Shown: positions 1-18,942, numbered from the whole stretch's first letter. The stretch is DNA of 63,855 nt, filler included, from GCA_964501035.1; 4 parts of 4 records of this genome joined end to end with filler, not necessarily neighbours in it, one strand, 5' to 3'. Numbers and translations: made by a program. Notes: a model not told the origin generated them from the letters alone.

Positions 1-245
1 CAAACATATCTTTTATTATTTTTAATGATATTGAAAATCATGAAAAATCTTTAGGCGATGTGGTTTATTCTGATAAAACGAATAGCTGGACAGGTTATGA
101 TATCACATTTAATTTATCAAGTGAAGCACAATTCTCCATCTTCTATGGTTCACAAAAGGGTGGGAGAGTATGTGCCAATGGGGTATGTGCAGACCAACCA
201 GGGTTTGAAGATGGATTTAAATTAACTTATAGAAGTATTTTTTAA
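1..245 (+). CDS. 3' end of a DUF6029-like outer-membrane beta-barrel protein (5' truncated by window edge)
   Basis: Frame is open from nt 3. C-terminus GSQKGGRVCANGVCADQPGFEDGFKLTYRSIF matches the GGxxCxxGVC...F ending I recall for DUF6029; terminal Phe is typical of barrels. Confidence 0.6.
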   Translation, partial: NISFIIFNDIENHEKSLGDVVYSDKTNSWTGYDITFNLSSEAQFSIFYGSQKGGRVCANGVCADQPGFEDGFKLTYRSIF

Positions 246-353
246 ATTGTTACAAATTGAAATAACTTAGTGAAGATGAAATGTTGTAAATTCGTTTTCG
301 AATTAGAAGACTTTACTTCACTATAATGCAAATAACTTAAAACGGAGCGAGGA

Positions 354-1865
354 ATGAAAACTATTTTAACAAGTATGATTATGATTACAATGATATGTGC
401 ATCCACATATAATGTGGGTGATACGATGTCAGAAAGTCATCAAAATTTAAGTTTTGATGTTTGTTATGGAAATTATGAAGGCGGTGATGAAGCATCATTT
501 GCAGATTTTAATGGAGAACTAAACGGTGGGAACTACAAAGTGACTTGGGTAGAATTATCTGCGAGTTGGTGTGAACCATGTTGGGATGCAATACCAATAA
601 TTGATAATATTACTGCACAGTGGGAAGATGATGAAAATGTGGCTATGGTAACAGTATTAGATGACATTGGTCAGCCATATTCGTGTACACAATGGGGTAA
701 TGCTGGCACAGTTGGCATTCCAATCATTCTTGATGATGGAAGTGGCTACACAATTTTTAATTGGTTTGAATCACAATCTGCGTTTCCTAGCAATGCATTT
801 ATTGACCATACGATGACTGTACATTATAAAACAAATAATATTGGTACTTACATAGCAAACCTAAAAATTCAAGAAATGATTGATGACTGTGACGAAGCAG
901 GTTTATGCAATAACGTAGATATGGATAGTGATGGAATTGAAAATGATGTTGATAATTGTCCCAATGATGCAAATACAGATCAAGCTGACCTTGATGAAGA
1001 TGGGTTAGGGGATGTTTGCGATGATTGTCATAATTTAAATGGTGACTTGAATGATGATACTATTCTAAATATTTTAGATATTGTAAGTGTAGTAAATATG
1101 ATTTTATCAGGTGGTGCAAATTCACCTGATTTTAATGATTGTCAAAAAGAAGATGCAGATATGGACAATAATAGTATTGTTAATATTTTAGATGTGATAC
1201 AAATTATTAACCAAATTGTTGGTATGTCACGTGTTGCAGAATTAACAGATTTAAATGCAGATGTTATATTCCACCAAGCAGGTGATGACCTAGTTGTTTC
1301 CATTGAATCAAACTCTAATATAGCAGGTATTGAATTTGCACTATTAGGTGATTATGCAAATACATTTGATTTAAAAGATAACTCACATATTACTGTTGAA
1401 TCTTCATCTATTAATGGTATTACTCACATGCTAGCATATTCTTTGTTTAATCAAGCATTTGATAGCCATACAGTTGAGTTTACAATAAAAGGCGCAGGAT
1501 ACTTAAATAGTGAAGATATAATGGTTACCGTGGGTTCACAAAATGGTGACGCATTTACACTTACACTTGCTGATGAAGATGGTATATATCAAAATGGACC
1601 TGATACATTTACACTATCAAGTGTGTATCCAAATCCATTTAATCCATCAACAGAGATAGAATTTACACTTCCATCTGATGGATATGTACGATTATCAGCA
1701 TATAATGTAATGGGACAAGAGATGTCTGTTATTTATGATGGTTTCCAATCCATTGGAACCCATTCATATACATGGAATGCATCTGAATTACCATCCGGAG
1801 TATATTATATTCGACTCTTATCTGGTAACCGAGTTGAAACTACTAAAGCTATTTTAATGAAATAA
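354..1865 (+). CDS. Secreted thioredoxin-fold (TlpA/AhpC-TSA-like, WCEPC) protein with TSP3-like repeats, dockerin, cohesin-like domain and C-terminal sorting domain
   Basis: Signal peptide; SASWCEPCW; AFP cis-Pro region; DxDxDG..NCP...DxDxDGLGDVCD repeats; GDLNDDTILNILDIV / ADMDNNSIVNILDVI dockerin pair; YPNPFNPSTEI...SGVYYIRL...KAILMK. Confidence 0.85.
   Translation: MKTILTSMIMITMICASTYNVGDTMSESHQNLSFDVCYGNYEGGDEASFADFNGELNGGNYKVTWVELSASWCEPCWDAIPIIDNITAQWEDDENVAMVTVLDDIGQPYSCTQWGNAGTVGIPIILDDGSGYTIFNWFESQSAFPSNAFIDHTMTVHYKTNNIGTYIANLKIQEMIDDCDEAGLCNNVDMDSDGIENDVDNCPNDANTDQADLDEDGLGDVCDDCHNLNGDLNDDTILNILDIVSVVNMILSGGANSPDFNDCQKEDADMDNNSIVNILDVIQIINQIVGMSRVAELTDLNADVIFHQAGDDLVVSIESNSNIAGIEFALLGDYANTFDLKDNSHITVESSSINGITHMLAYSLFNQAFDSHTVEFTIKGAGYLNSEDIMVTVGSQNGDAFTLTLADEDGIYQNGPDTFTLSSVYPNPFNPSTEIEFTLPSDGYVRLSAYNVMGQEMSVIYDGFQSIGTHSYTWNASELPSGVYYIRLLSGNRVETTKAILMK
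1179..1861 (+). repeat. 683-bp direct repeat, copy 1 (3' part of gene 354-1865)
   Basis: Appears identical by eye to 2764-3446 (offset 1585); the encoded peptides are identical. Confidence 0.9.
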
Positions 1866-1896
1866 AGGGTATTATCCCTTTAAAAAGGAGCACAAA

Positions 1897-3450
1897 ATGA
1901 ATAGACTATTTTTAATATTATTATTAGTTTGTGGGCTTTCAGCTCAAACCTATGATGTGGGCGAAATCATAAGTCAAAACCATCAAAATACTGAGTTTGA
2001 TGTTTGCTATGGTGAATATGAAAGTGATGTATTTCATTTAGCAGATTTAAATGGAGCAACAAATGGTGGTAATTACCATATCATATTTATTGATATGGCA
2101 GCTACATGGTGAGGCCCTTGCTATCAGGACATCAGTTCGATGGACTCACATGTAGAACACTGGCAAGATAATGAAAATGTACAATTTTTTGTAGCTCTAG
2201 CAGATATTGGTCAACCATATACTTGTCAACAATGGGGGGATGCAGGTCAAGTTGGTTCACCACTTATTTTAGATGATGATCCAGGTACGTTTTTTAACTG
2301 GGTACATGACTCTTGGAATGCATATCCAACTTATGCTGTAATTGACCACAATATGCGAGTGAGAGTTAAGCCTTGGACATATACAAGTAATTCAAATACC
2401 AATGAGTGCTATAATATTAATGGCTGCTCTGGTGGAAATACTGACAATTTCATTCAACAACTTGTTGATGAATGTGAAGCAGAAGGGCTCTGTGGAAATG
2501 TTGATAGTGACCAAGATGGTTTGAATGCTGATGAAGATAATTGTCCTCAGGATTATAATCCCGGTCAAGAAGATGATGATTTGGATGGTATTGGAGATGT
2601 ATGTGATGATTGCCACAACATGAATGGTGACTTAAATGATGATACTATTCTAAATATTTTAGATATTGTGAGTGTTGTTAATATGATTTTGACTGGCGGT
2701 TCAAATTCACCTGATTTTAATGATTGTGAAAAGGGTGATGCAGACTATGATGGAAATGGAATGGTTAATATTTTAGATGTGATACAAATTATTAACCAAA
2801 TTGTTGGTATGTCACGTGTTGCAGAATTAACAGATTTAAATGCAGATGTTATATTCCACCAAGCAGGTGATGACCTAGTTGTTTCCATTGAATCAAACTC
2901 TAATATAGCAGGTATTGAATTTGCACTATTAGGTGATTATGCAAATACATTTGATTTAAAAGATAACTCACATATTACTGTTGAATCTTCATCTATTAAT
3001 GGTATTACTCACATGCTAGCATATTCTTTGTTTAATCAAGCATTTGATAGCCATACAGTTGAGTTTACAATAAAAGGCGCAGGATACTTAAATAGTGAAG
3101 ATATAATGGTTACCGTGGGTTCACAAAATGGTGACGCATTTACACTTACACTTGCTGATGAAGATGGTATATATCAAAATGGACCTGATACATTTACACT
3201 ATCAAGTGTGTATCCAAATCCATTTAATCCATCAACAGAGATAGAATTTACACTTCCATCTGATGGATATGTACGATTATCAGCATATAATGTAATGGGA
3301 CAAGAGATGTCTGTTATTTATGATGGTTTCCAATCCATTGGAACCCATTCATATACATGGAATGCATCTGAATTACCATCCGGAGTATATTATATTCGAC
3401 TCTTATCTGGTAACCGAGTTGAAACTACTAAAGCTATTTTAATGAAGTAG
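1897..3450 (+). CDS. Predicted selenoprotein: paralog of 354-1865 with a WUGPC motif (TGA 2110-2112 read as Sec72), 517 aa
   Basis: ORFs 1897-2112 and 2140-3450 are in the same frame, separated only by the TGA. Readthrough gives MAATW-U-GPCYQDISSM, colinear with LSASW-C-EPCWDAIPII of the upstream paralog. SD AAGGAG and signal peptide at 1897. Confidence 0.85.
2113..2155 (+). promoter_or_regulatory. Candidate bacterial SECIS element
   Basis: Stem CATC(2130-2133)/GATG(2139-2142) with loop AGTTC (G at loop position 2), loop starting about 21 nt after the TGA; extended by AG/CT and CTAT/GTAG pairings. Confidence 0.5.
2764..3446 (+). repeat. 683-bp direct repeat, copy 2 (3' part of gene 1897-3450)
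   Basis: Appears identical to 1179-1861. Confidence 0.9.
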
Positions 3451-3471
3451 ATGTTTTATGTACTTGATAGT

Positions 3472-3501
3472 AAAAAAGGGAGATGACCATCTCCCTTTTT
3501 T
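3472..3501. terminator. Rho-independent terminator
   Basis: AAAAAAGGGAGATG-AC-CATCTCCCTTTTTT. Confidence 0.85.
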
Positions 3502-3571
3502 ATTATATCAATCTTTTGGAAACATAAAATAAGGTTTTTTGTTAGAGTATAATGAAGATTAAATTTCGAAT

Positions 3572-4408
3572 ATGATTCATCGGTTATTCATAGTATTCTT
3601 ATTAGTATTTTCATCTGTTTTATTTGCTCAATTTGAGAACGTATCTGTTCAATTAGATTTGAAGCAAATTCGAGAAAATGATAAGTATATTATTAATACA
3701 TTTGCTGATGAAGTACAGAACTACATTTTGACAAGTCCATTTGCACCAGGTGCAGAAGATTTAGGTATCAACATAAATATACATTTTGTTTTTGAATCCA
3801 TTGAAGATAATAGTAATAACCATATTGTAAATGCCCAAGTATTAATTACTAACAGTTTAGATTTAAATTATTTTACAAAAGGGGTTGAATTCCCATTTTC
3901 AAATGGGCAATCGATGTTTTATTCAATAACATTTGATCCCATAGCATCTTTTTTGGATTATTATGCTTATATATTCATTGCAAATGAATTAGATACATAT
4001 GATTATTTAGGTGGTGAACAGTACTTTTCATTAGCAGAAGAAATCGCTTCTGAAGGCAAAAGTTCTACATATTCACGAAGTTGGGATGACCGTTGGAAAA
4101 AAGTAAGAAAAATTCGCAGAAATCAACATCTACGAAGCGTTAAATATCATTACTTTACTGCTTTGGACAATTACACTTCTGAAAATATGAATATGGAAAA
4201 TTTTCAAGCATCAATCGATGAGTTTTACATCAGTTTACAAGATATTGATAACGATTATGGTCAAGATAGATTTACGATATATTTTTTAAAAGCATATACT
4301 TCAGAAGTTTGTGAGTTAGTTTCCTTTATAAACAGAAAAGAAATTTTTCATTTTTTAATTAATTTTGATGAAGAAAATAAATCTATTTATCAAAAGTATT
4401 TAAAATAG
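3572..4408 (+). CDS. DUF4835 family protein (PorD-like, T9SS-associated)
   Basis: Signal peptide; motif IASFLDYYAYIFIANELDTYDYLGGEQYF..A..I followed by W..RW, resembling DUF4835. Confidence 0.6.
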   Translation: MIHRLFIVFLLVFSSVLFAQFENVSVQLDLKQIRENDKYIINTFADEVQNYILTSPFAPGAEDLGININIHFVFESIEDNSNNHIVNAQVLITNSLDLNYFTKGVEFPFSNGQSMFYSITFDPIASFLDYYAYIFIANELDTYDYLGGEQYFSLAEEIASEGKSSTYSRSWDDRWKKVRKIRRNQHLRSVKYHYFTALDNYTSENMNMENFQASIDEFYISLQDIDNDYGQDRFTIYFLKAYTSEVCELVSFINRKEIFHFLINFDEENKSIYQKYLK

Positions 4409-4411
4409 GTT

Positions 4412-5614
4412 ATGACCCAAACAATTCGTTTTATACTTCTTTTATTTTTAGTATTTTCTTTTGTGAATTCACAAAAATCTTCCACTGAAATTCAAAAAGA
4501 TATCGACAAGCAAAACAAAGAGTTAAAACAAATTCGGAATGAAATAAACTCGATGGAAAAACAAATTATTTCCAAGACCAAAGAAGCAATTTCAGCAACT
4601 GAGATATTGATTGACATAGAGAATAAAATATCGTTAACCGAAAAGCTTATACGCTCTCTAAATCGCGAAGAAAGATACATATCTGAAAAAATATTCCATA
4701 CAGAAAATAACATAAATGAAAAAGAAAAGTATTTGGATGAACTAAGGAATCAACTCACTAAACGAATGACTCATATTTATAAAGCAGGAAGACCTTCGCC
4801 CTTGCAAACTGTTGTTCTATCTAAAAATTGGAATGAAGCCATTTATAAGGTTAAATATTTAGAAGTTCTTACAGACTATGAAACTAAAATTAGAAGTGAG
4901 ATTAGTAAAATTATAAATGAATTGCAGGATGAAAAACATCAATTAGAAAGTGAGTTAACTCGCAAAACTAATATAAAGAATGAAAAACAAATTGAAAGTT
5001 CTAATTTAGAAAATGACAAAACTACTCGAAAAAAATACATTAGTAAAATAAAAGACCAGAAAACTAAGCTTGAATCAGAAGTTAAACAGAAAAAAGAAAT
5101 GATGGCTCAAATAGAATCACTAATAAATAAGTTATTTTCTGATAAAGAAGCTTCTAAGAAAAGAGAGGAAGAATTAGCACGTATTAGAGCCATACAAAAT
5201 TTAGCAACATCAGGAAACTTTGCTAAAATGAAGGGCAAACTTCCATGGCCTGTTAGTGGAAAAATTATTTCAAAGTTTGGACTACAACGTAATCCTGAAT
5301 TAAAAACTGAAACTGAAAATTCAGGTATTGATATTGAATGTAACGCAGGTAAAAATGTAGTTTCAGTATTAGATGGGGTTGTAAGTACAATTACATTTAT
5401 ACGCGGTTATGGAAACATTATTATTGTTGATCATGGAGGAAGTTATAGTACTGTTTATGCTCACGTAGATGAAATAGTTGTACGTGAGAATGAATATGTG
5501 CAAGCTGGTAAAAATATAGCCCAAATTAGTGGATCAGGTGTATCGTATTTACATTTTGAAGTGTGGGGAAATCAGAAAAAATTAAATCCACAAGTTTGGT
5601 TAACTAGTAAATGA
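4412..5614 (+). CDS. envC: EnvC-like murein hydrolase activator (coiled coil + M23 domain)
   Basis: Long coiled coil, KGKLPWPVSG, GYGNIIIVDHG, LHFEV. Confidence 0.8.
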   Translation: MTQTIRFILLLFLVFSFVNSQKSSTEIQKDIDKQNKELKQIRNEINSMEKQIISKTKEAISATEILIDIENKISLTEKLIRSLNREERYISEKIFHTENNINEKEKYLDELRNQLTKRMTHIYKAGRPSPLQTVVLSKNWNEAIYKVKYLEVLTDYETKIRSEISKIINELQDEKHQLESELTRKTNIKNEKQIESSNLENDKTTRKKYISKIKDQKTKLESEVKQKKEMMAQIESLINKLFSDKEASKKREEELARIRAIQNLATSGNFAKMKGKLPWPVSGKIISKFGLQRNPELKTETENSGIDIECNAGKNVVSVLDGVVSTITFIRGYGNIIIVDHGGSYSTVYAHVDEIVVRENEYVQAGKNIAQISGSGVSYLHFEVWGNQKKLNPQVWLTSK

Positions 5615-6789
5615 TTTATTCTGATTTAATTCAATATAAAAATATTTGGGAAAGATTTTCACGAGCATTCTCGCAAGATAAAATGCCACATGCACTATTA
5701 TTGCATGGTCCAACCGGGGTTGGAAAAGAGGCAATCGCAATTGAACTTGCAGGATTATTAAATTGCTCGAATCTACAAAATGAATACGCATGTGGTTTGT
5801 GTAGTTCGTGCAAGAGGATTCGAACATTTCAACATGAAAATGTAAAACTTGTAGTTCCTCTTCCGAGAAATAAAAAATTAAGTAACAAAGATTCTTCACC
5901 ATTAAATGGCTTAACAACAAATTCACTTACAATGTTGCAAGAACAAATGAAATTAAAAGGTGAACAACCTTATTCAAGAATAAAATTACCACAATCCAAT
6001 ACGATACTTATAAACTCAATACGTGAGATTAGAAAAAATATTACAATGAGTATTGCCGATAAAGGATGGCAGGTTTTCTTGATTTTTGATGCAGAGTTTC
6101 TATGCATTCCGAATGATACTTCAGCAAATGCTTTGTTGAAAATATTGGAAGAACCCCCTGAAAAAACAATTTTTATTTTAGTTACAAGTGATGTTTCAAC
6201 AATGTTAGATACGATACGTTCTAGATGTCAACAAGTGTACTTTCCACCTTTGAAATCAAACCTTATTGCTTCATTTCTAGAAAGTAATGGTTATGAGAGT
6301 AAAATTTCAAGTATTGCATCCAGAATTTCCAACGGGGATGTTAGAATAGCTCAATCTATTGCAAAATCACCTGACGATTTAAATGAAAATTTAAAAGTGT
6401 TCATAAATGCTGTTTTTTCTACTGATGCTGTACATTGGCAAAAATTGTCAGATTATCTAGGAAACTTGAAACGGAAAAATATAGATGATTTTATTGCTTT
6501 TTTCAGAACATCAGAATATTTTATGAGAGATTTGCTTGTGTTCTCCTCATCAGAAGAAACATCAAATCTAGTTTATCTACATTATGTAACTCAAATTGAA
6601 AAAATTGCTTCAAATTATCCCAATGCTGATTGGCATTCTTGTATTCAGATACTTGAAAATTCGGTTGAACATGTAAAAAGAAATGGATATCTACCACTTA
6701 TGATATCCTCAATGTTAATTGAATTACAAACCAGTCTAAATGGTATACAGTCTAAAACATTTGATTTACACGAATGGCTGGCTTCTTAG
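5611..6789 (+). CDS. holB: DNA polymerase III subunit delta'
   Basis: HALLLHGPTGVGK, CGLCSSC, ANALLKILEEPP, TIRSRC. Confidence 0.9.
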   Translation: MIYSDLIQYKNIWERFSRAFSQDKMPHALLLHGPTGVGKEAIAIELAGLLNCSNLQNEYACGLCSSCKRIRTFQHENVKLVVPLPRNKKLSNKDSSPLNGLTTNSLTMLQEQMKLKGEQPYSRIKLPQSNTILINSIREIRKNITMSIADKGWQVFLIFDAEFLCIPNDTSANALLKILEEPPEKTIFILVTSDVSTMLDTIRSRCQQVYFPPLKSNLIASFLESNGYESKISSIASRISNGDVRIAQSIAKSPDDLNENLKVFINAVFSTDAVHWQKLSDYLGNLKRKNIDDFIAFFRTSEYFMRDLLVFSSSEETSNLVYLHYVTQIEKIASNYPNADWHSCIQILENSVEHVKRNGYLPLMISSMLIELQTSLNGIQSKTFDLHEWLAS

Positions 6790-6863
6790 TTATTGGCAAA
6801 TATATTACATTTAAATTCATGTTAAAATAGTTCTAAATTTGCAAACTCTATTCGAAGGGAAAT

Positions 6864-8381
6864 ATGACTAAATTCTATGTAACAACACCACTATATTATG
6901 TTAATGATGAACCACACATAGGGCATGCTTATACAACCATTTTAGCAGATGTGTTATCGCGATTTCATCGTTCAAAAGGTGATGATGTTCATTTTTTAAC
7001 AGGTACAGATGAACACGGTCAAAAGGTTCAAGAAGCATCAGAAAGAAGACATGTTACACCCCAAATTCATGTTGATGAATATGTTAAGCGATTCCAAGAA
7101 CTGTGGAAAAAGTTGCATATTCAAAATGATGACTTTATCCGTACAACAGAACCTAGGCACACCAATCGAGTGAAAGAACTTTTAATATCTCTATGGGAAA
7201 AAGGTGAAATTTATGCGGATGAATATGAAGGTTTATATTCAGTCTCAGAAGAAAGATTTGTAACTGAAAAGGAAGTAGAAGAAGGCAGTTTTAGAGGAAT
7301 AAAGAAATTAAAAGAGCGAAATTATTTCTTTAAAATGTCAAACTATCAAGATGCTCTAATTGAACATATCAATACAAATCCAGAATTCATAAAACCAACA
7401 ACACGTAAAAATGAGATATTAGGGTTTCTTAAAAAACCATTAAATGATTTATGTATATCACGCCCAAAATCACGACTAAACTGGGGAATCGAGATTCCAT
7501 TTGATAAAGACTATGTAACCTATGTTTGGTTCGATGCATTATTAAATTATATTACAGCTATTGGGTGGGGAAAAGATGATAAACAGTTTAGACATTATTG
7601 GCCCGCAAACTATCATTTGATTGGCAAGGATATTTTAACTACTCATGCAGTGTATTGGCCTACAATGCTGTTAGCATCTGGAGTTCCTTTACCTAAAACT
7701 ATTTTCGCTCATGGGTGGTGGCTTCAGGAAGACACTAAAATGTCCAAATCAATCGGGAATGTTGTTAAACCACTCGATTTAATTGATGAATTTGGAGTTG
7801 ACCCCTTACGTTATTTTTTAATGAGAGATATGGTATTGGGCATGGATGCTAATTTTTCCATGGATAGTTTTGTTAAAAGATATAATTCTGATTTAGCAAA
7901 TGACTTTGGAAATCTAGTAAATCGGGTAACAATGTTGATAAAAAAACATTTTTCTGGTGAAGTTCCAAAACCAGGTACTTATTCAGAATTAGATATTGAG
8001 TTAATCAATAAGGCTAAATCAACACCTGTATTAGTGCATAAAAATATTGAAGAGTTAAAGATTCATGATGCATTGGAAAATACAATTTCTATGATACGAT
8101 TAGTAAATGCTTATTTAGAAAATAGAGCACCGTGGAAGCTAGTGAAGGAAAGTACAGAACAAGAAAGTCTAGCTGCAACAACTTTATATGTAGCTCTTGA
8201 GGTACTTCGAATAGGTTCTCAATTATTGCAACCTGTTATGCCCGAGAGGATACGCACTATTTTAGTTATTATTGGCGCAACAGATGTATCATTAACAAAA
8301 TTAAATTTTGGAATATTAAAACCTGGAACCAAACTTGGGGAAGGAAAGTCACCATTTCCAAGAATTCAAACAAAAAAATGA
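6864..8381 (+). CDS. metG: Methionyl-tRNA synthetase (short form)
   Basis: FYVTTPLYYVND.PHIGH, YVWFDAL, KMSKS. Confidence 0.97.
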   Translation: MTKFYVTTPLYYVNDEPHIGHAYTTILADVLSRFHRSKGDDVHFLTGTDEHGQKVQEASERRHVTPQIHVDEYVKRFQELWKKLHIQNDDFIRTTEPRHTNRVKELLISLWEKGEIYADEYEGLYSVSEERFVTEKEVEEGSFRGIKKLKERNYFFKMSNYQDALIEHINTNPEFIKPTTRKNEILGFLKKPLNDLCISRPKSRLNWGIEIPFDKDYVTYVWFDALLNYITAIGWGKDDKQFRHYWPANYHLIGKDILTTHAVYWPTMLLASGVPLPKTIFAHGWWLQEDTKMSKSIGNVVKPLDLIDEFGVDPLRYFLMRDMVLGMDANFSMDSFVKRYNSDLANDFGNLVNRVTMLIKKHFSGEVPKPGTYSELDIELINKAKSTPVLVHKNIEELKIHDALENTISMIRLVNAYLENRAPWKLVKESTEQESLAATTLYVALEVLRIGSQLLQPVMPERIRTILVIIGATDVSLTKLNFGILKPGTKLGEGKSPFPRIQTKK

Positions 8382-9142
8382 AGTTGATTGATACACATTC
8401 ACATATTTACTATGATTCATTATCCGAAAATTTAGATGATGTAATTAACCGTGCATCTGATAATAATGTACATTCAATTATTTGTGTTGGAACTGATTTG
8501 ATTTCAAGCGAAACTTCTATCCAAATTGCAGAAAAATACCCCAATGTATATGCTACAGTTGGAATTCATCCACATGAAGCTAGCAAAGTATCCAAAAGTT
8601 ATTTGAATGAGTTAGAAAATTTTTTAGACCATCCCAAAGTTGTTGCAGTTGGTGAAATGGGATTAGATTATTATTACGAACATAGTGAAAGAAAAATCCA
8701 AAACAGAGTTTATCTTGAACAATTAGAATTTGCTAAATCATTTGATATGCCAGCTGTTGTACACTGTCGGGAATCCGACGAAGATATATTGAGCGGGATT
8801 GAATTTACTCACAGTTCGCATGGTGTCATTCATTGTTTTGCGAGTAATTTAGATTTTGCTCAAAAAATAATCAATACAGGGTTTTCCATTTCCTTTACTG
8901 GAATATTAACATTTGTTAAAGAATTGGAAGAAGTGGTCAGAGAAATTCCTTTAGAAAAATTATTAATTGAAACTGATGCACCTTATCTATCTCCCAAGCC
9001 ATTTAGAGGTAAAACAAACGAACCTGCTTACGTAAAGTACATAGCTGAAAAAATAGCAGAAATCAAAAATATACCCATAAATGACGTAGCAAAAGTTACT
9101 ACAGAAAACGCACTGTCTTTGTTTGCTAAAATCAATGCCTAG
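8378..9142 (+). CDS. tatD: TatD family DNase
   Basis: IDTHSH, GIHPH, GEMGLDY, ETDAPYL. Confidence 0.92.
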   Translation: MKLIDTHSHIYYDSLSENLDDVINRASDNNVHSIICVGTDLISSETSIQIAEKYPNVYATVGIHPHEASKVSKSYLNELENFLDHPKVVAVGEMGLDYYYEHSERKIQNRVYLEQLEFAKSFDMPAVVHCRESDEDILSGIEFTHSSHGVIHCFASNLDFAQKIINTGFSISFTGILTFVKELEEVVREIPLEKLLIETDAPYLSPKPFRGKTNEPAYVKYIAEKIAEIKNIPINDVAKVTTENALSLFAKINA

Positions 9143-9887
9143 TTCAAAACATCCATTTAGAAAACGATGGGGACAAAATTTTCTTCAAGATAAAAATGTT
9201 ATTGCAAAAATAGTTGCATTATTGGATATTCAACCTGATGATACAGTGTTGGAAATTGGACCAGGGCAAGGAGCATTAACATTTGAAATAGCAAAAATTG
9301 CAAAACATGTAATAGCTGTTGAAATTGATCCTTTGTTAGTGGATTTTTTAAACCAATCTAAAACCTATAATATGGAAATTATTCAAAGTGACATTTTAAA
9401 TATGGATTTAGATAATTTACCAAATTCTATGAAAATAATAGGGAACTTACCGTATAATATTACATCTCCTATATTGTTTAAGTTTTTAGATTGGGGTAAA
9501 TGGGAGAAGATGGTATTTATGACGCAGAAAGAGGTTGCTGAACGCATTGTATCTGCATCGGGGAATAAGAAATATGGGCGACTATCTGTTATGTCTCAGA
9601 TATTATCAAATGTAAGTTTAGATTTTCATGTTTCAAATACGGTATTTCACCCCAAGCCTGATGTGCAATCTTCGGTTTTATCGTTTCAGCCTTCAGCTAA
9701 AATCATTAAAAATATTGATGATTTGTCTAAAATTGTTAAACTTGCTTTTAGTCAACGAAGAAAAAAAATTAAAAACAATTTAAGACCGTTGTTTAATGAA
9801 GAAGAATTAGTGGGGTTGTCTGATATGAGGGCAGAAGATTTAAAAGTTTCAGATTACTTGGAGCTATATAAACAAAAATATTTGTAA
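9135..9887 (+). CDS. rsmA: 16S rRNA m6,2A dimethyltransferase KsgA
   Basis: GQNFL, LEIGPGQG, GNLPYNI; ATG 9135 preferred to TTG 9123. Confidence 0.93.
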   Translation: MPSSKHPFRKRWGQNFLQDKNVIAKIVALLDIQPDDTVLEIGPGQGALTFEIAKIAKHVIAVEIDPLLVDFLNQSKTYNMEIIQSDILNMDLDNLPNSMKIIGNLPYNITSPILFKFLDWGKWEKMVFMTQKEVAERIVSASGNKKYGRLSVMSQILSNVSLDFHVSNTVFHPKPDVQSSVLSFQPSAKIIKNIDDLSKIVKLAFSQRRKKIKNNLRPLFNEEELVGLSDMRAEDLKVSDYLELYKQKYL

Positions 9888-9945
9888 AAACATGAATTAA
9901 TTGTGTAAATTACTAAGCTATTCTAACCACCAATTATAGGAATTT

Positions 9946-10917
9946 ATGGCAAAAAAAGATACTGCAAAGAAAAAAACATCAACTAAAGTAGATGGAAAAG
10001 CTACAAAAAGCAATGCATCTGCTAAACCCAAAGTTCCTCCTAAGAAAAAACAAACCAAAATTGATAAAAAAATTCAAAAATTAGGAAGTGACGCAAATCG
10101 TTCACTTAGCAAATATTTACAAGAAATAAGCCGATATGAACCTCTTTCACCTGATAGGGAAGTAGAACTTGCTATCCGAGTAAAACAAGGGGACAGACGA
10201 GCATTAAAAGAATTAACAGAAGCAAATCTACGTTTTGTAGTTTCAGTTGCTAAAGATTACCAAGGTCAAGGACTTCCATTAACCGATTTAATTAATGAAG
10301 GTAACTTAGGTCTCATAAAAGCTGCTGAAAGATTTGATGAAACCCGTGGTTTTAAATTTATTTCGTATGCTGTGTGGTGGATTCGCCAATCTGTTTTACA
10401 AGCACTGGCTGAACATTCTAGAATTGTAAGGTTACCACTTAATCGAGTAGGTACAATTAGTAAAATTAATAAAGCATCTGAACGACTTGAGCAAGAGTTT
10501 GAAAGATCTCCTCGTGCTGATGAACTTTCAAAACAGTTGGGAATGAAAGTGAAAGAAGTAAATGATGCTCAACGAATTTCACGAAGACATCATTCGTTGG
10601 ATACTCCATTTTCAGATGAAGATAAAAATTGTTTGTTAGATGTTATTGCTGATGGCACAACTGAATCACCAGATAAAGAATTGCAAATGGATTCTCTTGA
10701 AGAAGAAGTATGTGCAGCATTGGATACATTAAAAGAACGTGAACGTGATGTTATTAAGATGTATTTCGGTATTCAACGCGGATATGCATTAACATTAAAT
10801 GAAATTGGCGAAGAATTTGGTTTGACTCGTGAACGTGTTCGACAGATTAAAGAAAAAGCAATCCGTCGGTTACGTCACAGGTCACGAAGTAAAACATTAA
10901 GAACATATTTAGGATAA
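9946..10917 (+). CDS. rpoD: Primary-type sigma70 factor, short form with a basic N-terminus in place of region 1.1
   Basis: [40 protein letters not shown]. Confidence 0.85.
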
Positions 10918-10936
10918 CCAGAAGGAGGTAATTAGT

Positions 10937-11113
10937 ATGGTTAGTGTTAAAGTTAGAGATGGTGAACCCTTTGAAAAAGCATTACGACGTTTTAAGAAAA
11001 AGTGGGAAAAAGCAGGAATCTTGCGTGAATGTAAATCTCGGCAACATTATTTGAAACCAAGTGCAGAGAAAAAACTCGCAAAATCTAAAAAGAAAAAACG
11101 ACCACTTTATTAA
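10937..11113 (+). CDS. rpsU: 30S ribosomal protein S21 (58 aa, absent from ORF track)
   Basis: [49 protein letters not shown]. Confidence 0.95.
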
Positions 11114-11138
11114 GTTGAGGTTATTTTGAATTTTTATT

Positions 11139-11170
11139 AAAAAGTCCAGACTATACGGTCTGGACTTTTT
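11139..11170. terminator. Rho-independent terminator
   Basis: AAAAAGTCCAGAC-TATACG-GTCTGGACTTTTT. Confidence 0.85.
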
Positions 11171-11182
11171 TAATTTATACCT

Positions 11183-12523
11183 ATGGAATTTATACGAGGA
11201 ATATCAGGAATACGTGGAATTGTAGGCAATGGACTAGATGTTCAATCAGTTTCTGTCCATGCTAAAGCATTTGCAAACATCCAAAAAGATGGAATAATAT
11301 TAGTTGCTAGAGATAGTCGTTCTCATGGTGCAGAATTGTTAGAGGCAATTAGCAATGCTTTATCAGAAATTGGGCGAACCGTTGTTAATTGTGATATTAT
11401 ACCAACACCCACTGCACAATTTATGATTGAAAAAAGGCAATACGCTGGTGGTATTGTTATAACTGCAAGTCATAATCCTATTCAATGGAATGGAATGAAA
11501 TTTATTGATTCAGATGGCTGTTTCTTAGATAGTGATAAAAATAATAGACTGTTTCAAATTGCAGATGAAAATAAATTTGGTTCATCTAAACTTTTAGGGA
11601 AAATTGAAAATGATGAAGATGGTTTGACAGAGCATATTGACCATACATCAACTTTGTCAGTAATAGATTTACCTTTGATAAAATCAAGACAATTTAAGGT
11701 TGTTGTTGATTCTGTGAATGGTGCTGCATCTGATGCACTTCCTAGAATGTTAGAAAAGTTAGGGTGTGATGTTGAAGAAATTTATTGTGAACCAAACGGA
11801 ATATTTTTGAGAGGAGCTGAACCACTTCCACATAATCTTGAAGATTTAGGAAATAAGGTTAAGCAAGTGAATGCTGATGTAGGGTTTGCAACTGATCCAG
11901 ATGGAGATAGGTTGGCAGTTGTGGATGAAAAAGGAAATCCACTCGGTGAAGAATATACCTTAACTATTTGTGCTGATGCTGTGTTAAGTAAATATGATAA
12001 TTCAACTCCACTAGTTACAAATCTTTCGACTACATTAGCTTTGGATAAGTTGGCAGAAAGGTATGAAAATTCAGTTATTCGATCAGCAGTAGGAGAAATC
12101 AATGTTGTTAATCTAATGAAAGAGAAAAAATCAGTGATTGGGGGTGAAGGAAATGGAGGAGTAATATTCCCAGAATCACATTATGGGAGAGATTCATTGG
12201 TAGGTGTAACTCTATTCTTGCAAAAAATGGCAACTACTCATCAAAGAGTAAGTGAGATATTTCATTCAATGCCTCAGTTTAAAATGGTAAAGGATAAAGT
12301 AGAATTAGGCGAAGTAGATCCTGATGAAGCAATTGCCAAAATACAAAAAGCATTTCTTGATATTGAACAAAACACATTAGATGGATTAAAATTAACTTGG
12401 TCTGACCGATGGGTACATATCCGAAAATCAAATACAGAACCAATCGTTCGAATTTATGCAGAAGCACCAACAAAAAATGATGCCAATAAGTTAGTTAAAA
12501 CAATAAAAAAATGTATATTGTAA
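11183..12523 (+). CDS. glmM: Phosphoglucosamine mutase / phosphohexomutase
   Basis: ITASHNP, DPDGDR, GGEGNGG, RKSNTEP. Confidence 0.8.
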   Translation: MEFIRGISGIRGIVGNGLDVQSVSVHAKAFANIQKDGIILVARDSRSHGAELLEAISNALSEIGRTVVNCDIIPTPTAQFMIEKRQYAGGIVITASHNPIQWNGMKFIDSDGCFLDSDKNNRLFQIADENKFGSSKLLGKIENDEDGLTEHIDHTSTLSVIDLPLIKSRQFKVVVDSVNGAASDALPRMLEKLGCDVEEIYCEPNGIFLRGAEPLPHNLEDLGNKVKQVNADVGFATDPDGDRLAVVDEKGNPLGEEYTLTICADAVLSKYDNSTPLVTNLSTTLALDKLAERYENSVIRSAVGEINVVNLMKEKKSVIGGEGNGGVIFPESHYGRDSLVGVTLFLQKMATTHQRVSEIFHSMPQFKMVKDKVELGEVDPDEAIAKIQKAFLDIEQNTLDGLKLTWSDRWVHIRKSNTEPIVRIYAEAPTKNDANKLVKTIKKCIL

Positions 12524-13429
12524 ATGAGTAACAAATTACTAAATTCAACCCAAATTATGTATATTGATGAAGTAGGTGTAAATGAACGTATTACTAGATT
12601 AAACTCTAGAAGTATTAAAAAAGAGAGTAAAAATTCTGCTCTTTTGTTAGCATTAAGCATGATTGATTTAACTACACTCGAAGGAATGGATACGCCAGGA
12701 AAAGTTAAACAATTGTGTAACAAGGCAATGCATCTTTCAAATGGAGTTAACAATGTTCCTCATGTTGCTGCAATATGTGTATATCCATCATTAGTAAGAA
12801 TTGCAAAAACTGCACTGGATGGAAGTGGAATTCATATTGCTTCGGTTGCAACAGGTTTTCCAAGCGGACAAACCAGTCTAGAATCAAGATTAGATGAAAT
12901 AAAATATGCTCTTGACGAAGGGGCGGATGAAGTTGATATGGTAATTTCAAGAGGAAAATTTCTTAGTGGAGATTTTGATTCTGTATTTGATGAAATTGTT
13001 AAATCAAAAGAAGTATGTAGAGATGCTCATCTCAAGGTGATTTTGGAAACATCTGAGTTAAGTACATTAGATAATGTTCGCCATGCTAGCAATATTGCTA
13101 TGGAAGCAGGGGCAGATTTTATTAAAACATCTACGGGTAAAGCAAAATGTGGAGCAACTCAACCCGTTACACTTGTAATGTTAGAAGCCATTCGGGATTT
13201 CTATAAAAAAACTGGTAAAAAAATTGGTATGAAACCTGCAGGTGGAATTAGTGATTCTAAAACAGCATTAAAATATTTAGTAATGGTTAAAGAAACATTA
13301 GGCACAGAATGGCTTACCTCTAAATTATTTAGATTTGGAGCGAGTTCTTTAGCTAATGATTTGTTAATGCAAATCATGAAGCAAAAAACCGGTGTATATC
13401 AATCAATTGATTATTTTTCAAAGGACTAG
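12524..13429 (+). CDS. deoC: Deoxyribose-phosphate aldolase
   Basis: IDLTTL, DEVDMV, KVILET, FIKTSTGK, RFGASSL. Confidence 0.95.
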   Translation: MSNKLLNSTQIMYIDEVGVNERITRLNSRSIKKESKNSALLLALSMIDLTTLEGMDTPGKVKQLCNKAMHLSNGVNNVPHVAAICVYPSLVRIAKTALDGSGIHIASVATGFPSGQTSLESRLDEIKYALDEGADEVDMVISRGKFLSGDFDSVFDEIVKSKEVCRDAHLKVILETSELSTLDNVRHASNIAMEAGADFIKTSTGKAKCGATQPVTLVMLEAIRDFYKKTGKKIGMKPAGGISDSKTALKYLVMVKETLGTEWLTSKLFRFGASSLANDLLMQIMKQKTGVYQSIDYFSKD

Positions 13430-13432
13430 AAT

Positions 13433-14887
13433 ATGAGTGAAACAACAAAATTTACCCTAGATTATTCTCCAGCTATTGAGTCAACTGATCATATTTCGAT
13501 AGATAAGCAATATGATTTATTTATTGATGGTGAATTTCAAGCCCCATCAAATGGAAAGTATTTTGATACAATTAATCCAGCAACAGGAGAGACAATTTCA
13601 AAAGTTGCTGAAGCCAATACTAATGATGTCGATAAAGCAGTTTTATCTGCGAAAAAATGTTATGAAAATGTTTGGTCAAAATTACCTGCAAAAGAGCGTG
13701 GAAAATATATATATAGAATAGCGAGAGTGCTTCAAGAAAGAAGCCGAGAATTTGCTGTTATTGAGACGATTGATGGCGGAAAACCAATTCGTGAAAGTAG
13801 GGATGTTGATTTACCACTAGCTGCTTCACATTTCTTTTACTATGCTGGATGGGCTGATAAATTAGATTATGCTTTTCCAGGAAGACAAACCCGAGCTTTA
13901 GGGGTTGCAGGGCAAATTATTCCTTGGAATTTCCCGTTATTAATGGCTGCTTGGAAAATAGCACCTGCACTTGCTTGTGGAAATACTGTCGTTTTAAAAC
14001 CTGCTGAAACAACACCACTTACTGCACTAAAATTAGCTGAACTATTTCAAGACATTGATTTACCACCTGGTGCAGTTAATATTATCACTGGAGCTGGTCA
14101 GACTGGTGCTGAAATTGTCAATCATACTGATGTTGATAAAATTGCATTTACAGGTTCGACAGATGTTGGAAAAATCATCCAAAAGGCATTAGCTAGAACT
14201 CAAAAAAGAGTAACACTCGAATTGGGTGGAAAAGCGGCACATATAATATGTAATGATGCAGCAATTAATCAAGCTGTTGAAGGAATTATTAATGGTATAT
14301 TTTTCAATCAAGGTCATGTTTGTTGTGCCGGAAGTCGATTATATTTACAAGAAGGAATTGCTGAAGAAGTATTAGCAAAACTTAAACACAGAATGGATTC
14401 CTTGATTGTGGGTAATCCACTTGATAAAAACACGGACATTGGTGCTATAAACTCTAAAATGCAACTCGATAAAATAAAAGCATTAGTTCAATCTGGAATT
14501 GATGAAGGTGGTGAATTATATCAACCTAATAATGATATTCCTAGCAAAGGATACTATTTCAAACCAACCTTAATTTCAAATGTTTCTCAATCTCACAGAG
14601 TGGTTCAAGAAGAAATATTTGGGCCTGTTTTGGCTATTCAAACGTTCCGAACAATTGAAGAAGTTATTGAAAAAGCAAATAACACTCCTTATGGTTTGTC
14701 TGGTGGGGTTTGGACGGATAAAGGTGCTAAAATATTCAAAATTACCAATGAAATTCGTGCGGGTGTAATGTGGGCAAATTCATTTAATAAGTTTGATCCA
14801 AGTTCTCCATTTGGTGGTTATAAGGAAAGTGGAATGGGCAGAGAAGGTGGAGTCCATGGTTTGCAATCTTATTTGGAGTTAGTATGA
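13433..14887 (+). CDS. Aldehyde dehydrogenase (catalytic subunit)
   Basis: IIPWNFP, FTGST, LELGGK, NQGHVCCAG, EEIFGP. Confidence 0.93.
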   Translation: MSETTKFTLDYSPAIESTDHISIDKQYDLFIDGEFQAPSNGKYFDTINPATGETISKVAEANTNDVDKAVLSAKKCYENVWSKLPAKERGKYIYRIARVLQERSREFAVIETIDGGKPIRESRDVDLPLAASHFFYYAGWADKLDYAFPGRQTRALGVAGQIIPWNFPLLMAAWKIAPALACGNTVVLKPAETTPLTALKLAELFQDIDLPPGAVNIITGAGQTGAEIVNHTDVDKIAFTGSTDVGKIIQKALARTQKRVTLELGGKAAHIICNDAAINQAVEGIINGIFFNQGHVCCAGSRLYLQEGIAEEVLAKLKHRMDSLIVGNPLDKNTDIGAINSKMQLDKIKALVQSGIDEGGELYQPNNDIPSKGYYFKPTLISNVSQSHRVVQEEIFGPVLAIQTFRTIEEVIEKANNTPYGLSGGVWTDKGAKIFKITNEIRAGVMWANSFNKFDPSSPFGGYKESGMGREGGVHGLQSYLELV

Positions 14888-15747
14888 GTGATAGATTAAA
14901 CGTTCAAAAAACATACAAGTTATATATAAATGGTCAATTTCCAAGAACAGAATCAGGGAGATATTATCCTGTTAAGGATTCAGACGGGAAATTTATTGCA
15001 AATGCATGTCTTGCAAGCCGTAAAGATTTTAGAAATGCGGTACAATCTGCGAGGTCTGCTGTAGGAAATTGGAATAGTAGAACCGCTTATAACAGAGGTC
15101 AAATTTTATATCGCATAGCTGAAACAATGGAGTATAGAAAAGATCAATTTATTCAAGAACTATTACAGTTTGGATTTTCACAACATGAAGCAGAAATAGA
15201 AATTAATACTTCAGTTGATAAAGTTGTGTATTATGCTGGGTGGTCTGATAAATTTCAGCAAATATTTAGTTCTGTAAATCCAGTTTCAAGTTCTCATTTT
15301 AACTTCTCTATTCTTGAAAATCAAGGAGTTATTGCAGTTATAGCACCTGAAACAAATCCATTATGTGGTATTCTCTCTGTTATAATCCCTGCAATTGTTA
15401 GTGGAAATACCGTCGTTTGTCTTGCTTCAGAAAACTATCCATTTTCAGCAATATCGCTAGCAGAAGTACTTCAAACCTCAGATGTACCGTCAGGGGTAGT
15501 AAACATACTAACTGGAAAAGTTTCTGAATTGCATGAACATTTTGCATCTCATATGGATGTGGATGGAATTATTTATTGCGGACAAGATAATACTACAATT
15601 CAACAAATCAAAGAAAGTGCTTCACTCAATATGAAACGTGTGAAAGTTTATAATAAAAATAATTGGTTAGAAGATAAAACACAATCACCATATTTTATTT
15701 TAGAAAACACTGAAGTAAAAACTACATGGCATCCAATTGGGAAATAA
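14884..15747 (+). CDS. Short ALDH-like protein (Rossmann part only, no catalytic domain)
   Basis: KTYKLYINGQFPRTESGR, PSGVVNILTG, KTTWHPIG; lacks ELGG and the catalytic Cys. Confidence 0.8.
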   Translation: MSDRLNVQKTYKLYINGQFPRTESGRYYPVKDSDGKFIANACLASRKDFRNAVQSARSAVGNWNSRTAYNRGQILYRIAETMEYRKDQFIQELLQFGFSQHEAEIEINTSVDKVVYYAGWSDKFQQIFSSVNPVSSSHFNFSILENQGVIAVIAPETNPLCGILSVIIPAIVSGNTVVCLASENYPFSAISLAEVLQTSDVPSGVVNILTGKVSELHEHFASHMDVDGIIYCGQDNTTIQQIKESASLNMKRVKVYNKNNWLEDKTQSPYFILENTEVKTTWHPIGK

Positions 15748-15827
15748 TGTGCAAATATTGACCTTGCAACTTTGTTTATATTTTATAAAAACATACTAAA
15801 ACGAAATACAAATTAGGAATTAAATAA

Positions 15828-17246
15828 ATGAATCAAGTAGCAAGAGAAGTTCCCAAAAAAGGTACAGATATAGAACTTAATATCGAGTCATTAGCCTTTG
15901 GTGGAATGGGTGTATCTCATGTTGGAGATATAGTAGTTTTTGTTAAAAATGCAATACCAGGAATGAAAGTGTTAGCTCGTATTACTAAAAAACGATCCAG
16001 ATTTTTAGAAGCCCGTACTTTGAGAGTAATTGAAAATTCACCTTTGGCAGTAGATGTTAAATGTAACCACTTTGCTGATTGTGGAGGTTGTACTTTCCAA
16101 AACTTAAACTATGATGAACAGTTATCAGCAAAGGAAGAACAAGTACGTGATGTTTTTAGGCGTATTGGTGGATTTAAAAATGTACACGTTGAACCCATTC
16201 AAGGGTGTAATGATATATTTCATTATAGAAATAAAATGGAATTTACCTTCGCAAATAGAAGGTGGGTGACTAACGATGAGCCTGAAGGAGTAAATACAGA
16301 TTTTGCATTGGGTCTGCATGTTCCAGGTAGGTATGATAAAATACTAAACATCGATAAATGCCATATTCAATCACATGATGCAAATAGAATTCTCATGATA
16401 GTGAAAACATTGGCAAAAGAACTTGGATTAACACCCTATGATATCAAAGAACATACTGGTTTTTTACGCCATTTAATGATTCGTCATGCTCAAAACACCA
16501 ATGAGATAATGGTGAATATTGTAACATCTACTGACGGAAGAACCGAGTTGCAGCCTATTGTGAAATCCTTAGTGGAAACATTTCCTAATATTAAAAGCAT
16601 TGTTAACAATGTAACAACTCGACGTGCAGGGGTTTCAACAGGTGAAAAGCAATTTGTGCTTTTTGGAAAGGACTCTATAACAGAAACATTAGGAACATAT
16701 TCATATACAATCTCAGCAGATTCGTTTTTCCAAACCAATTCCAAGCAAGCTGAAGTGTTGTACGACTTAATTAATGAAGAAGCATCTTTGACTGGCGATG
16801 AAGTAGTATATGATTTGTTTTGCGGTACGGGATCAATTTCGATTTTTGTGGCAGAAAAAGCTAAAATGGTTTATGGATTTGAATTAGTGATGCCAGCTGT
16901 TCAAGATGCAATGCAAAATGCAATCAAAAACGGTGTTAAAAATGCATGGTTTTTTAGTGGAGATTTAATGAATATTTTTCAGACTAATGAAGAAACAAAA
17001 CAATTACCAAATCCTGATGTAATGATTGTAGACCCTCCAAGAGCTGGATTACACCCCAAAACAATTCCAGATATTTTAGAGAAGTCTCCTCATAGAATAG
17101 TGTATGTTTCATGTAATCCTTCTACGCAAGCACGTGATGTGAAAGAATTGTGTGAAAATGGATATGAACTCCATAAATTAAGACCGGTTGATATGTTTCC
17201 ACATACACCGCATGTTGAAAACATTGCTACACTGATTAAAAAGTAA
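15828..17246 (+). CDS. rlmD: 23S rRNA m5U1939 methyltransferase
   Basis: TRAM domain, CNHFADCGGC, SFFQTN, DPPRAG, YVSCNP, DMFPHT. Confidence 0.9.
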   Translation: MNQVAREVPKKGTDIELNIESLAFGGMGVSHVGDIVVFVKNAIPGMKVLARITKKRSRFLEARTLRVIENSPLAVDVKCNHFADCGGCTFQNLNYDEQLSAKEEQVRDVFRRIGGFKNVHVEPIQGCNDIFHYRNKMEFTFANRRWVTNDEPEGVNTDFALGLHVPGRYDKILNIDKCHIQSHDANRILMIVKTLAKELGLTPYDIKEHTGFLRHLMIRHAQNTNEIMVNIVTSTDGRTELQPIVKSLVETFPNIKSIVNNVTTRRAGVSTGEKQFVLFGKDSITETLGTYSYTISADSFFQTNSKQAEVLYDLINEEASLTGDEVVYDLFCGTGSISIFVAEKAKMVYGFELVMPAVQDAMQNAIKNGVKNAWFFSGDLMNIFQTNEETKQLPNPDVMIVDPPRAGLHPKTIPDILEKSPHRIVYVSCNPSTQARDVKELCENGYELHKLRPVDMFPHTPHVENIATLIKK

Positions 17247-18175: not shown

Positions 18176-18942
18176 TGAGAGTATTTAATATTGGGTTTTA
18201 TACCTTGATTCGAAGAGAAACGCTTCGGTTTTTGGCATTGTATCAACAAACTATTTTACCCAGTATAATCTCATCGGGGTTATATATTATTGTTTTTGGA
18301 GAATCTTTAGGTTCTCGCATTGGTGAAATCAAAAATACAGATTACATCCACTTTATTATTCCAGGTTTGGTTATGATGTCAGTTATTAATCATGCTTATC
18401 AAAATTCATCTTCAAGCATAATGCAAGCAAAATTTCTTAGATTTATTGAGGATATTCTAATTACTCCATTAAGCGGATTTGAAATTAGTATGGGTTATGT
18501 GATTGGTGCGACTATTAGAGGTGTTTTAAATGGTGTGCTGGTTATTATTATAGGATGGATATTATCCGGTTTTATCGTCCAAAATTGGTTATTAACTTTT
18601 GTTTATTTACTTTCAGTATCTTGGACATTTGCTTCAGTAGGAGTTATAGTTGGAGTCTCAGCAAGTACCTGGGATCATATTGGTGTATTTACTAACTTTA
18701 TATTTCTTCCACTTACATTTTTGGGTGGGGTGTTTTATTCGATAGATATGCTTCCTGAATTTTGGCGAGTTTTATCTCAATTTAATCCACTTTATTGGAT
18801 GATTAATGGTTTACGCTATTCTACTTTAGGTATCTCTGATACATCACATAATATTTCATTGCTGTTAAGTATTAGTTTTGCAATAATATTTTCAATTATT
18901 TCTACCTTATTGATTTCAAAAGGATATAAGATTAAGACATAA
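18175..18942 (+). CDS. ABC-2 permease (YadH-like)
   Basis: Six hydrophobic segments, FIIPGL, PLTFLGGVFYS, NPLYW. Confidence 0.88.
   Translation: MRVFNIGFYTLIRRETLRFLALYQQTILPSIISSGLYIIVFGESLGSRIGEIKNTDYIHFIIPGLVMMSVINHAYQNSSSSIMQAKFLRFIEDILITPLSGFEISMGYVIGATIRGVLNGVLVIIIGWILSGFIVQNWLLTFVYLLSVSWTFASVGVIVGVSASTWDHIGVFTNFIFLPLTFLGGVFYSIDMLPEFWRVLSQFNPLYWMINGLRYSTLGISDTSHNISLLLSISFAIIFSIISTLLISKGYKIKT

Follow-up and report, generated by a model that had tools for sequence, protein, structure and literature searches.

Thioredoxin-fold selenoproteins with a UxxC motif have been catalogued since 2004-2005 (tables of PMC13188914 and PMC1088965), and the tabulated entries, compared by their table rows alone, place selenocysteine (Sec, U) first in a CxxC-type motif of a TlpA/Prx-like fold, as does the gene treated here. 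Table 2 of Zhang and Gladyshev (2008; PMC2398784) lists among them 'Prx-like 3', related to pfam08534 at e>0.001, with a UxxC motif, 68 selenoproteins and 2,608 Cys homologues; in the corresponding table of a 2026 review (PMC13188914) the family is entered as 'Redoxin family protein', PF08534, UxxC. The gene considered here occupies positions 1897-3450 of a stretch of 63,855 nucleotides, filler included, from GCA_964501035.1, which we call the window. It is very probably one exported selenoprotein gene of the marine Prx-like 3 UxxC family in which UGA is decoded as Sec, and its apparent stop almost certainly encodes the active-site selenocysteine. The family is already known as a predicted selenoprotein since 2008, and the window gene is a further member. 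The gene belongs to an ocean Marinimicrobia (SAR406) bacterium, whose genome is a metagenome assembly of 1.87 Mb in 167 contigs (95.7% complete, 1.33% contamination, 33.8% G+C). Positions 1-19085 of the window correspond to its contig C27 and 19086-63855 to N or other contigs; the window is thus a composite, with only 1-19085 lying on that contig.

Standard calling of open reading frames (ORFs) yields a 71-aa ORF (1897-2112) and a 436-aa ORF (2140-3450) in one frame, separated by the TGA in TGG TGA GGC CCT TGC (2107-2121, W-U-G-P-C). The frame is open from 2113, and 2140 is merely the first internal ATG after the TGA. Translated across the TGA, the frame encodes 517 residues, and U72 is the only codon of this kind. 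An earlier note, made from the DNA alone, had named the TGA at 2110-2112 as the sole interruption, which the ORF list and the 517-residue read-through bear out. It had also pointed to an adjacent paralog with WCEPC at the same place and homology on both flanks, and an alignment of 522 columns with 73% identity indeed spans the TGA. The signal peptide precedes the TGA and the sorting domain follows it, as the note had stated, and its expectation that gene callers would split the gene holds in the public collections searched. These contain the 436-residue fragment only, under the name 'T9SS type A sorting domain-containing protein', so that the catalytic half and the Sec residue are invisible to genome mining. 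What public records split in error is, as the note had recognised, a genuine selenoprotein gene. Its features, and the grounds for each, are as follows.

354-1865, + strand: tandem Cys paralog (WCEPC) of the same architecture (ORF list, domain scan, alignment).
1886-1890, + strand: Shine-Dalgarno-like AGGAG, read from the sequence 6 nt before the ATG; function putative.
1897-3450, + strand: whole selenoprotein gene, 517 codons and a TAG stop (match to its own genome over residues 1-517 with 1 TGA; paralog alignment spanning the TGA).
1897-1947, + strand: predicted signal peptide MNRLFLILLLVCGLSAQ (hydrophobic N-terminus; model helix 2-13; cleavage site placed by eye).
1948-2406, + strand: TlpA/ResA/DsbE-like thioredoxin-fold domain (PF00578, AlphaFold2 (AF2) model, Foldseek).
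2102-2155, + strand: tentative extended lower helix, 2102-2113 with 2145-2155, pairing the UGA itself (minimum-free-energy fold).
2107-2121, + strand: redox motif W-U-G-P-C (alignments A2 and A3 show W, U/C and C without exception).
2110-2112, + strand: TGA as selenocysteine U72 (read-through translation, homologue conservation, contigs from other sequencing runs).
2130-2142, + strand: hairpin resembling a selenocysteine insertion sequence (SECIS), CAUC / loop AGUUC / GAUG, starting 20 nt past the U of UGA.
2485-2616, + strand: Asp-rich, thrombospondin-type-3-like predicted calcium-binding repeats with CxxC-type cysteines (subthreshold TSP_3 in the paralog; NF045500 tail).
2626-2802, + strand: dockerin-like EF-hand repeat pair (subthreshold PF00404; three model helices at 254-303).
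2833-3204, + strand: beta-sandwich domain of no named family (model strands 315-428; weak Foldseek likeness to 2w1n).
3208-3438, + strand: C-terminal sorting domain of the type IX secretion system (T9SS) (PF18962, TIGR04183).

The strongest argument for Sec is the persistence of the codon among homologues. A search with the N-terminal 190 residues found 150 matches in 41 of the 42 genomes from the host's bacterial family; by count from the result table these comprised 132 with one TGA, 17 with none and 1 with two. After removal of duplicates, 148 distinct genes remained; 131 carry TGA at this position and 17 carry Cys (TGT/TGC). Their motifs are W-U-x-x-C in 126 genes, W-U-x-x-T in 2, irregular but with U in 3 (one of them U-x-x-U) and W-C-x-x-C in 17. 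The variant active sites at five loci (L116, L120, L145, L142 and L134) include S-U-S-G-U (UxxU), W-U-P-P-T and W-U-P-T-T (UxxT), W-U-P-T-E-C with one extra residue, and W-U-I-L-Y-G, a degenerate form. The conserved TGA is spread over 13 genera and is present in other families of the order too. In a sample of the phylum, 114/401 genomes gave a match, among them nearly all genomes of the host's family and of three sister families, with TGA beside Cys forms. A maximum-likelihood tree built from 147 domains, for which the trait residue was masked and one row with a domain below 110 aa was left out, implies at least 7 changes of the Sec/Cys state. The family occurs in 1-7 copies per genome. Tandem arrays of 3-4 paralogs, Sec and Cys forms mixed, were observed at G004:C44 (L083), G006:C13 (L068), G011:C80 (L061), G025:C35 (L081) and G007:C37 (L075).

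A second line of evidence is a hairpin behind the UGA. Bacterial SECIS elements are stem-loops lying a short way behind the UGA, and their apical loop contains a G. Most Sec genes of the family possess such a hairpin with a G-first apical loop (GUU, GUA, GGA, GGC, AGUUx), which begins 16-28 nt past the U of UGA and is built from 68 distinct 5' stems. The criteria were a stem of at least 4 bp, a loop of 3-6 nt and, as first or second loop base, a G that precedes U or G and lies 20-37 nt from the UGA. Such a hairpin was found in 115/121 Sec genes and 5/17 Cys genes, compared with 24/123 windows taken 150 nt deeper into these genes; shuffled sequences gave it in 24% of cases on average and in 33% at most. 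For stems of at least 5 bp the corresponding values were 84/121, 3/17, 7/123 and 11.5%. In a plain, ungapped MAFFT alignment of 118 distinct sequences (A1), one fixed structure paired 59.8% of the cells vs 49.9% after shuffling, and the covariation score was 0.368 vs 0.211 for shuffles (reached by 0/500) and 0.11-0.21 when the partners were slid; in the upper helix 72.7% was paired and 5/5 pairs showed double-sided changes. The A1 figures are diluted because some sequences hold the hairpin in another register. Among the 118 loci the position of the hairpin differs by paralog subfamily, which use different codons and different loops.

The machinery for decoding Sec is present in the host genome. 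A tRNA-Sec scores 65.8 bits, above cut-off, and is called SeC with anticodon tca by ARAGORN; selB (375 bits) adjoins selA (523 bits), both above curated cut-offs, and selD (379 bits, likewise above its curated cut-off) holds an in-frame TGA of its own and is thus Sec-containing. Those checks proposed in the earlier note that were run, namely a TGA conserved and aligned to Cys in homologues, the Sec genes, a SECIS element and the TGA in independent data, all turned out in favour of Sec, the last on assembled contigs rather than raw reads. Table 1 of a 2016 survey (PMC5029168) lists three SAR406 single-cell genomes as having an orphan SelD; given the complete Sec-decoding set in the present SAR406 genome, this status may reflect the incompleteness of those genomes.

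The N-terminal domain was assigned to the AhpC-TSA family by Pfam (PF00578, residues 58-157, 28 bits, cut-off 26), and precomputed PF08534 matches are recorded for the relatives P0009 and P0011. No NCBIfam model matches the Sec-bearing domain beyond weak similarity to ResA/DsbE/TlpA, and the closest solved structures by sequence are Bacteroides thiol-disulfide oxidoreductases with A-T-W-C-G-P-C. The AF2 model of this domain has a predicted local distance difference test score (pLDDT) of 92.2 and a predicted template modelling score of 0.85; strand 45-52 is followed by helix 56-60/62-71, and U, at domain residue 55, stands at the helix start. The domain was folded alone since the full-length model, when compared with the PDB, was swamped by generic Ig-like matches. 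The invariant positions in 34 full-length relatives (alignment A2) are W71, U/C72, C75, Q106, P107, C110, W113, P144 and H151, with C37 close behind. P144 is the candidate for the conserved cis-proline that faces the active site in this fold, and a structural disulfide between C37 and C110 is conceivable.

The remainder of the protein points to export. A signal-peptide-like start is seen in 26/26 full-length relatives listed, the signal peptide being judged from the hydrophobic N-terminus, the model helix and the relatives rather than by a predictor. The sorting domain exceeds its cut-offs with both PF18962 Por_Secre_tail (36.5 bits, cut-off 27) and TIGR04183 (39.5 bits, cut-off 23). A T9SS is indicated in the genome by the SprA translocon, above cut-off with 480 bits combined, and by a PorU-like match that scores 309 bits and misses its cut-off of 420. 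In the full-length model (pLDDT 78.5) the dockerin-like part is helical and is followed by two C-terminal beta-sandwiches. The middle domain (2833-3204) has no Pfam match at E<=0.1; Foldseek gives a weak likeness to the cohesin+FN3 structure 2w1n. Its identification as a cohesin was considered and dropped, since besides the missing Pfam match a tblastn search of the genome with residues 305-438 returns the two paralogs only, which also leaves a suspected overlap with a cohesin-positive ORF on contig C29 unsupported. A modelled complex between the dockerin-like part and the middle domain reached a median of 0.31 vs a mark of 0.32 and is evidence neither way. According to our own domain profiles the dockerin-like module is found in 101 and the sorting tail in 46 of the 148 family genes, 22 of which are cut by contig or locus ends.

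Taken together, the comparisons show that a protein with putative export signals has a conserved, SECIS-associated Sec codon where the nucleophile of its TlpA-type fold is predicted. From the fold and the motif only, the product is most likely a selenol/thiol-disulfide oxidoreductase acting outside the cytoplasm. We propose the following scenario: SelB with Sec-tRNA(Sec) would be recruited by the short hairpin at 2130-2142, which lies in the coding sequence 20 nt behind the UGA and has a G in its loop, and the 517-residue product would leave the cytoplasm by Sec export, directed by its signal peptide, and fold in the periplasm. The C-terminal sorting domain might then make it a substrate of the type IX secretion system, which would carry it to the cell surface with loss of the tail. 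Sec72 is expected to attack a disulfide of the substrate or an oxidised sulfur species, forming a selenenylsulfide that would be resolved by C75.

Several observations weigh against this interpretation. The earlier note had proposed an exported, surface-sorted selenoenzyme with dockerin; the selenoprotein and the sorting domain stand, and PF00404 Dockerin_1 stays below its gathering score (19.6 vs 22.9 bits), the module being accordingly named dockerin-like only, precomputed PF00404 matches being recorded for relatives. The hairpin of the window gene itself is weak (4 bp, -1.4 kcal/mol), and the 91-nt segment 2100-2190 folds no better than its shuffles (z -0.47), so that the weight rests on the local hairpin and the family comparison only. 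The enrichment of hairpins is in part post hoc, as the criteria were set after the first sequences had been seen, following general rules for bacterial SECIS elements, and the shuffle control overstates significance because related genes are not independent. Selenium incorporation is predicted from comparison of sequences, no RNA run was listed among those that contain the gene, and the likeness to the metagenomic GOS reads of the 2008 catalogue, described below, was judged by eye. Finally, we know of no electron donor for a thioredoxin-fold protein beyond the outer membrane, which leaves a catalytic cycle at the surface unexplained.

Against these points the competing explanations have to be set. 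A nonsense pseudogene, or alternatively two genes, one for a secreted peptide of 71 aa and one for a protein of 436 aa that starts at the ATG at 2140, would agree with the two ORFs of the standard call and with the 436-aa piece that stands as a protein in public collections; we hold it to be most improbable, since TGA occupies the same codon in the 131 homologues from 13 genera and in other families of the order, conservation at the protein level persists on both sides of it, and the second piece alone would be devoid of a signal peptide and of half its thioredoxin fold. The UGA might also be read through by a variant code, or by a near-cognate Trp or Cys tRNA without SelB, an explanation that draws on the fact that the identity of the residue inserted at U72 is a prediction from sequence. 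TGA is however an ordinary stop in this genome, as the earlier note had maintained, terminating 229/1129 standard ORFs of at least 200 aa, and at 5611 and 8378 the overlapping ATGA does join two genes (at 14884 only the string itself was checked). As the internal TGAs moreover align specifically with the Cys of the redox motif, are followed by a SECIS-like hairpin mostly missing from the Cys paralogs, and occur in a genome with tRNA-Sec, SelA, SelB and SelD genes, such a reading appears very unlikely. An error of sequencing or assembly at 2110-2112 could be favoured by the metagenomic, fragmented source with its 167 contigs and by a nearly identical 687-nt 3' part shared by both paralogs. Its probability is practically negligible, given that the TGA is unchanged in contigs (not raw reads) from 4 public runs of 4 studies of seawater and brine metagenomes, 2 of these contigs differing from the window at 1950 and 2061 only, and that G002, a separately assembled second species of the same genus, carries the identical codon in a protein 95% identical.

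A further alternative concerns the site of action only: the same selenoprotein could work in the periplasm as a DsbD-driven reductase in the manner of TlpA/ResA/CcmG, the tail and the dockerin-like module being secondary. In its favour, all of the nearest structural relatives are reductases that work outside the cytoplasm on electrons from DsbD or CcdA, the host genome carries a DsbD-like gene at G000:C53, and by our own domain profiles only 46/148 family members have the sorting tail vs 101/148 with the dockerin-like module. The above-threshold sorting domain of the window gene and the SprA translocon encoded in the genome speak for the surface instead. We consider the periplasmic site unlikely, albeit a live rival because the DsbD-like gene could serve the periplasm only. 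How exported selenoproteins are re-reduced outside the cell is the mechanistic question which they pose in general.

Returning to the exported selenoprotein gene and its tandem Cys paralog, the last 687 nt of the two (1179-1865 vs 2764-3450) show 2 differences only, one in the stop codon and one at the third position of the final Lys codon, while their N-terminal domains are only ~50% identical. The identity was measured by a script, a standard repeat finder having failed to report it, and points to recent gene conversion or a possible collapse in the assembly.

The window gene is not the only candidate selenoprotein of the genome. A genome-wide screen for in-frame TGA gave 675 raw candidates, 233 of which passed a codon-usage score that separated poorly; 20 of the 233 were picked by eye and 19 scanned. 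As the screen was not systematic, the resulting list, at least 9 candidate selenoproteins, is a lower bound. Eight of the 19 scanned candidates had no family match and are probably noise, and three were rejected because they are neighbouring genes that share a frame (adk/coaE, sigma/anti-sigma, and a gene upstream of DsbD). The candidates, each with an in-frame TGA or a Sec-type motif, include:

G000:C1:52085-52537, - strand: Bcp/PrxQ-type TxxU peroxiredoxin, T-P-G-U, in-frame TGA.
G000:C18:4468-5508, - strand: thioredoxin-TPR lipoprotein, T-D-T-U-P-W-C, in-frame TGA.
G000:C41:12211-12963, + strand: PrdB-like protein, U-P-M-C, in-frame TGA.
G000:C59:8390-9538, + strand: UshA-like protein, P-C-G-U, in-frame TGA.
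G000:C13:7032-8072, + strand: SelD, in-frame TGA.
G000:C8:36669-37907, + strand: L150, with signal peptide, choice-of-anchor R domain, Dockerin_1 (27.1 bits) and a C-terminal TUGYCR redoxin, G-U-S-T-C.
G000:C73:364-2265, - strand: L164, 634 aa, with signal peptide, LVIVD repeats, Ig-like domain, AhpC-TSA and Dockerin_1.
G000:C10:3577-4479, + strand: L152, 301 aa, with signal peptide, right-handed beta helix, C-P-N-U and Dockerin_1 (24.3 bits).

The dockerin modules of L150, L164 and L152 all exceed the PF00404 gathering score, and each of the three genes has a conserved TGA. The redoxin of L150 matches NF053656 above cut-off (135 bits), and its motif resembles, by eye, that of the '#Prx-like 2' reads in Dataset S1 of PMC2398784. 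L164 combines AhpC-TSA (64.8 bits, with S-P-L-U-P-V-C) with Dockerin_1 (36.2 bits), and its relatives keep one TGA in 25/25 matches from 25 of the 42 genomes; a similar sequence among the GOS reads, JCVI_READ_1309069, has a T9SS-type tail at its end. The beta helix of L152 corresponds to PF13229 (46 bits), and one TGA is present in 36/40 matches among the 42 family genomes, a count approximate to one. The matches without it include two contig-edge fragments ending before the site and one distant 724-aa ORF (36% identity) that spans it. No NCBIfam model matches the body of L152, which may represent an uncatalogued selenoprotein family.

Cohesin domains (PF00963, 29-34 bits, above cut-off) lie at G000:C9:623-1375 (- strand), C29:10273-10602 (+ strand) and C52:3232-3525 (+ strand), two of them in one 2192-aa ORF, and dockerin-like modules occur in dozens of ORFs of the host genome; the organism seems to possess a cohesin-dockerin display system. 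We put forward, as a tentative and rather doubtful suggestion, that the lineage runs a whole group of dockerin-tagged selenoenzymes exported to or past its outer membrane, with Prx-like 3 (1-7 copies) as main module, a set which in the host genome would consist of the window family together with L150, L164 and L152. If so, its possible roles might be the breaking of disulfide-crosslinked marine proteins, the handling of polysulfide or peroxide, or metal capture. SAR406 is abundant in the ocean interior, and the selenium demand of the group is probably underestimated, considering the full Sec machinery and the at least 9 candidates in a 95.7%-complete genome.

With regard to the known systems, the TlpA/ResA/DsbE(CcmG)/DsbF group and the pneumococcal Etrx proteins share the fold of the N-terminal domain; the best Foldseek matches, with template modelling scores of 0.54-0.69, are DsbE (3gl3), ResA (1su9), DsbF (3ios), CcmG and Etrx1/2. 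All of them are extracytoplasmic and Etrx is surface-exposed, and the A-T-W-C-G-P-C context of 4k9z and 2lja matches that of the window motif. In contrast to the TlpA/ResA group, whose members use Cys, are membrane-anchored or lipoproteins and receive electrons via DsbD/CcdA, the window protein has Sec, the additional conserved residues C37 and C110, and a T9SS tail. The 'Omp28-related selenoprotein' GOS_C (NCBIfam NF045500) shares the Asp-rich and dockerin-like tail, its profile positions 272-376 matching residues 201-303. The match covers the tail only (55-57 bits, cut-off 200), and membership in NF045500 was rejected because the Sec-bearing body does not match.

The closest relationship is that to Prx-like 3, which likewise combines UxxC with a distant Prx/redoxin-type thioredoxin fold and derives from marine metagenomes. 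The '#Prx-like 3' reads in Dataset S1 of PMC2398784 share with the window family the blocks Y-x-V-G-D, V-C-Y-G, N-G-G-x-Y, W-U-x-x-C and Q-P-Y-S/T-C-x-Q-W-G, and several of them already bear Asp-rich and dockerin-like tails. By eye, JCVI_READ_1091138274397 of that data set is nearly the same as the homologue L033 in G041, which is 57% identical to the window domain, and JCVI_READ_1093011906937 is nearly the same as L055. The novelty that the earlier note implied for this architecture thus falls, in that family members, tails included, are listed under 'Prx-like 3' in Dataset S1 and the family is not new; nor does the present gene alter the known range of selenoprotein kinds. The Prx-like 3 passages of the 2008 paper give neither a host nor a full-length architecture, and its main text mentions a fusion with the Cys-rich domain 'Unknown_3' and contains 'signal peptide' 0 times. 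Searches of open-access papers that connect selenoproteins with Marinimicrobia/SAR406/Marinisomatota, dockerin or type IX secretion turned up no description of the architecture. What is new here is the Marinimicrobia host, the full predicted export architecture with its T9SS tail, the copy number, the Sec/Cys turnover, the SECIS statistics and the finding that public protein records contain only a truncated fragment.

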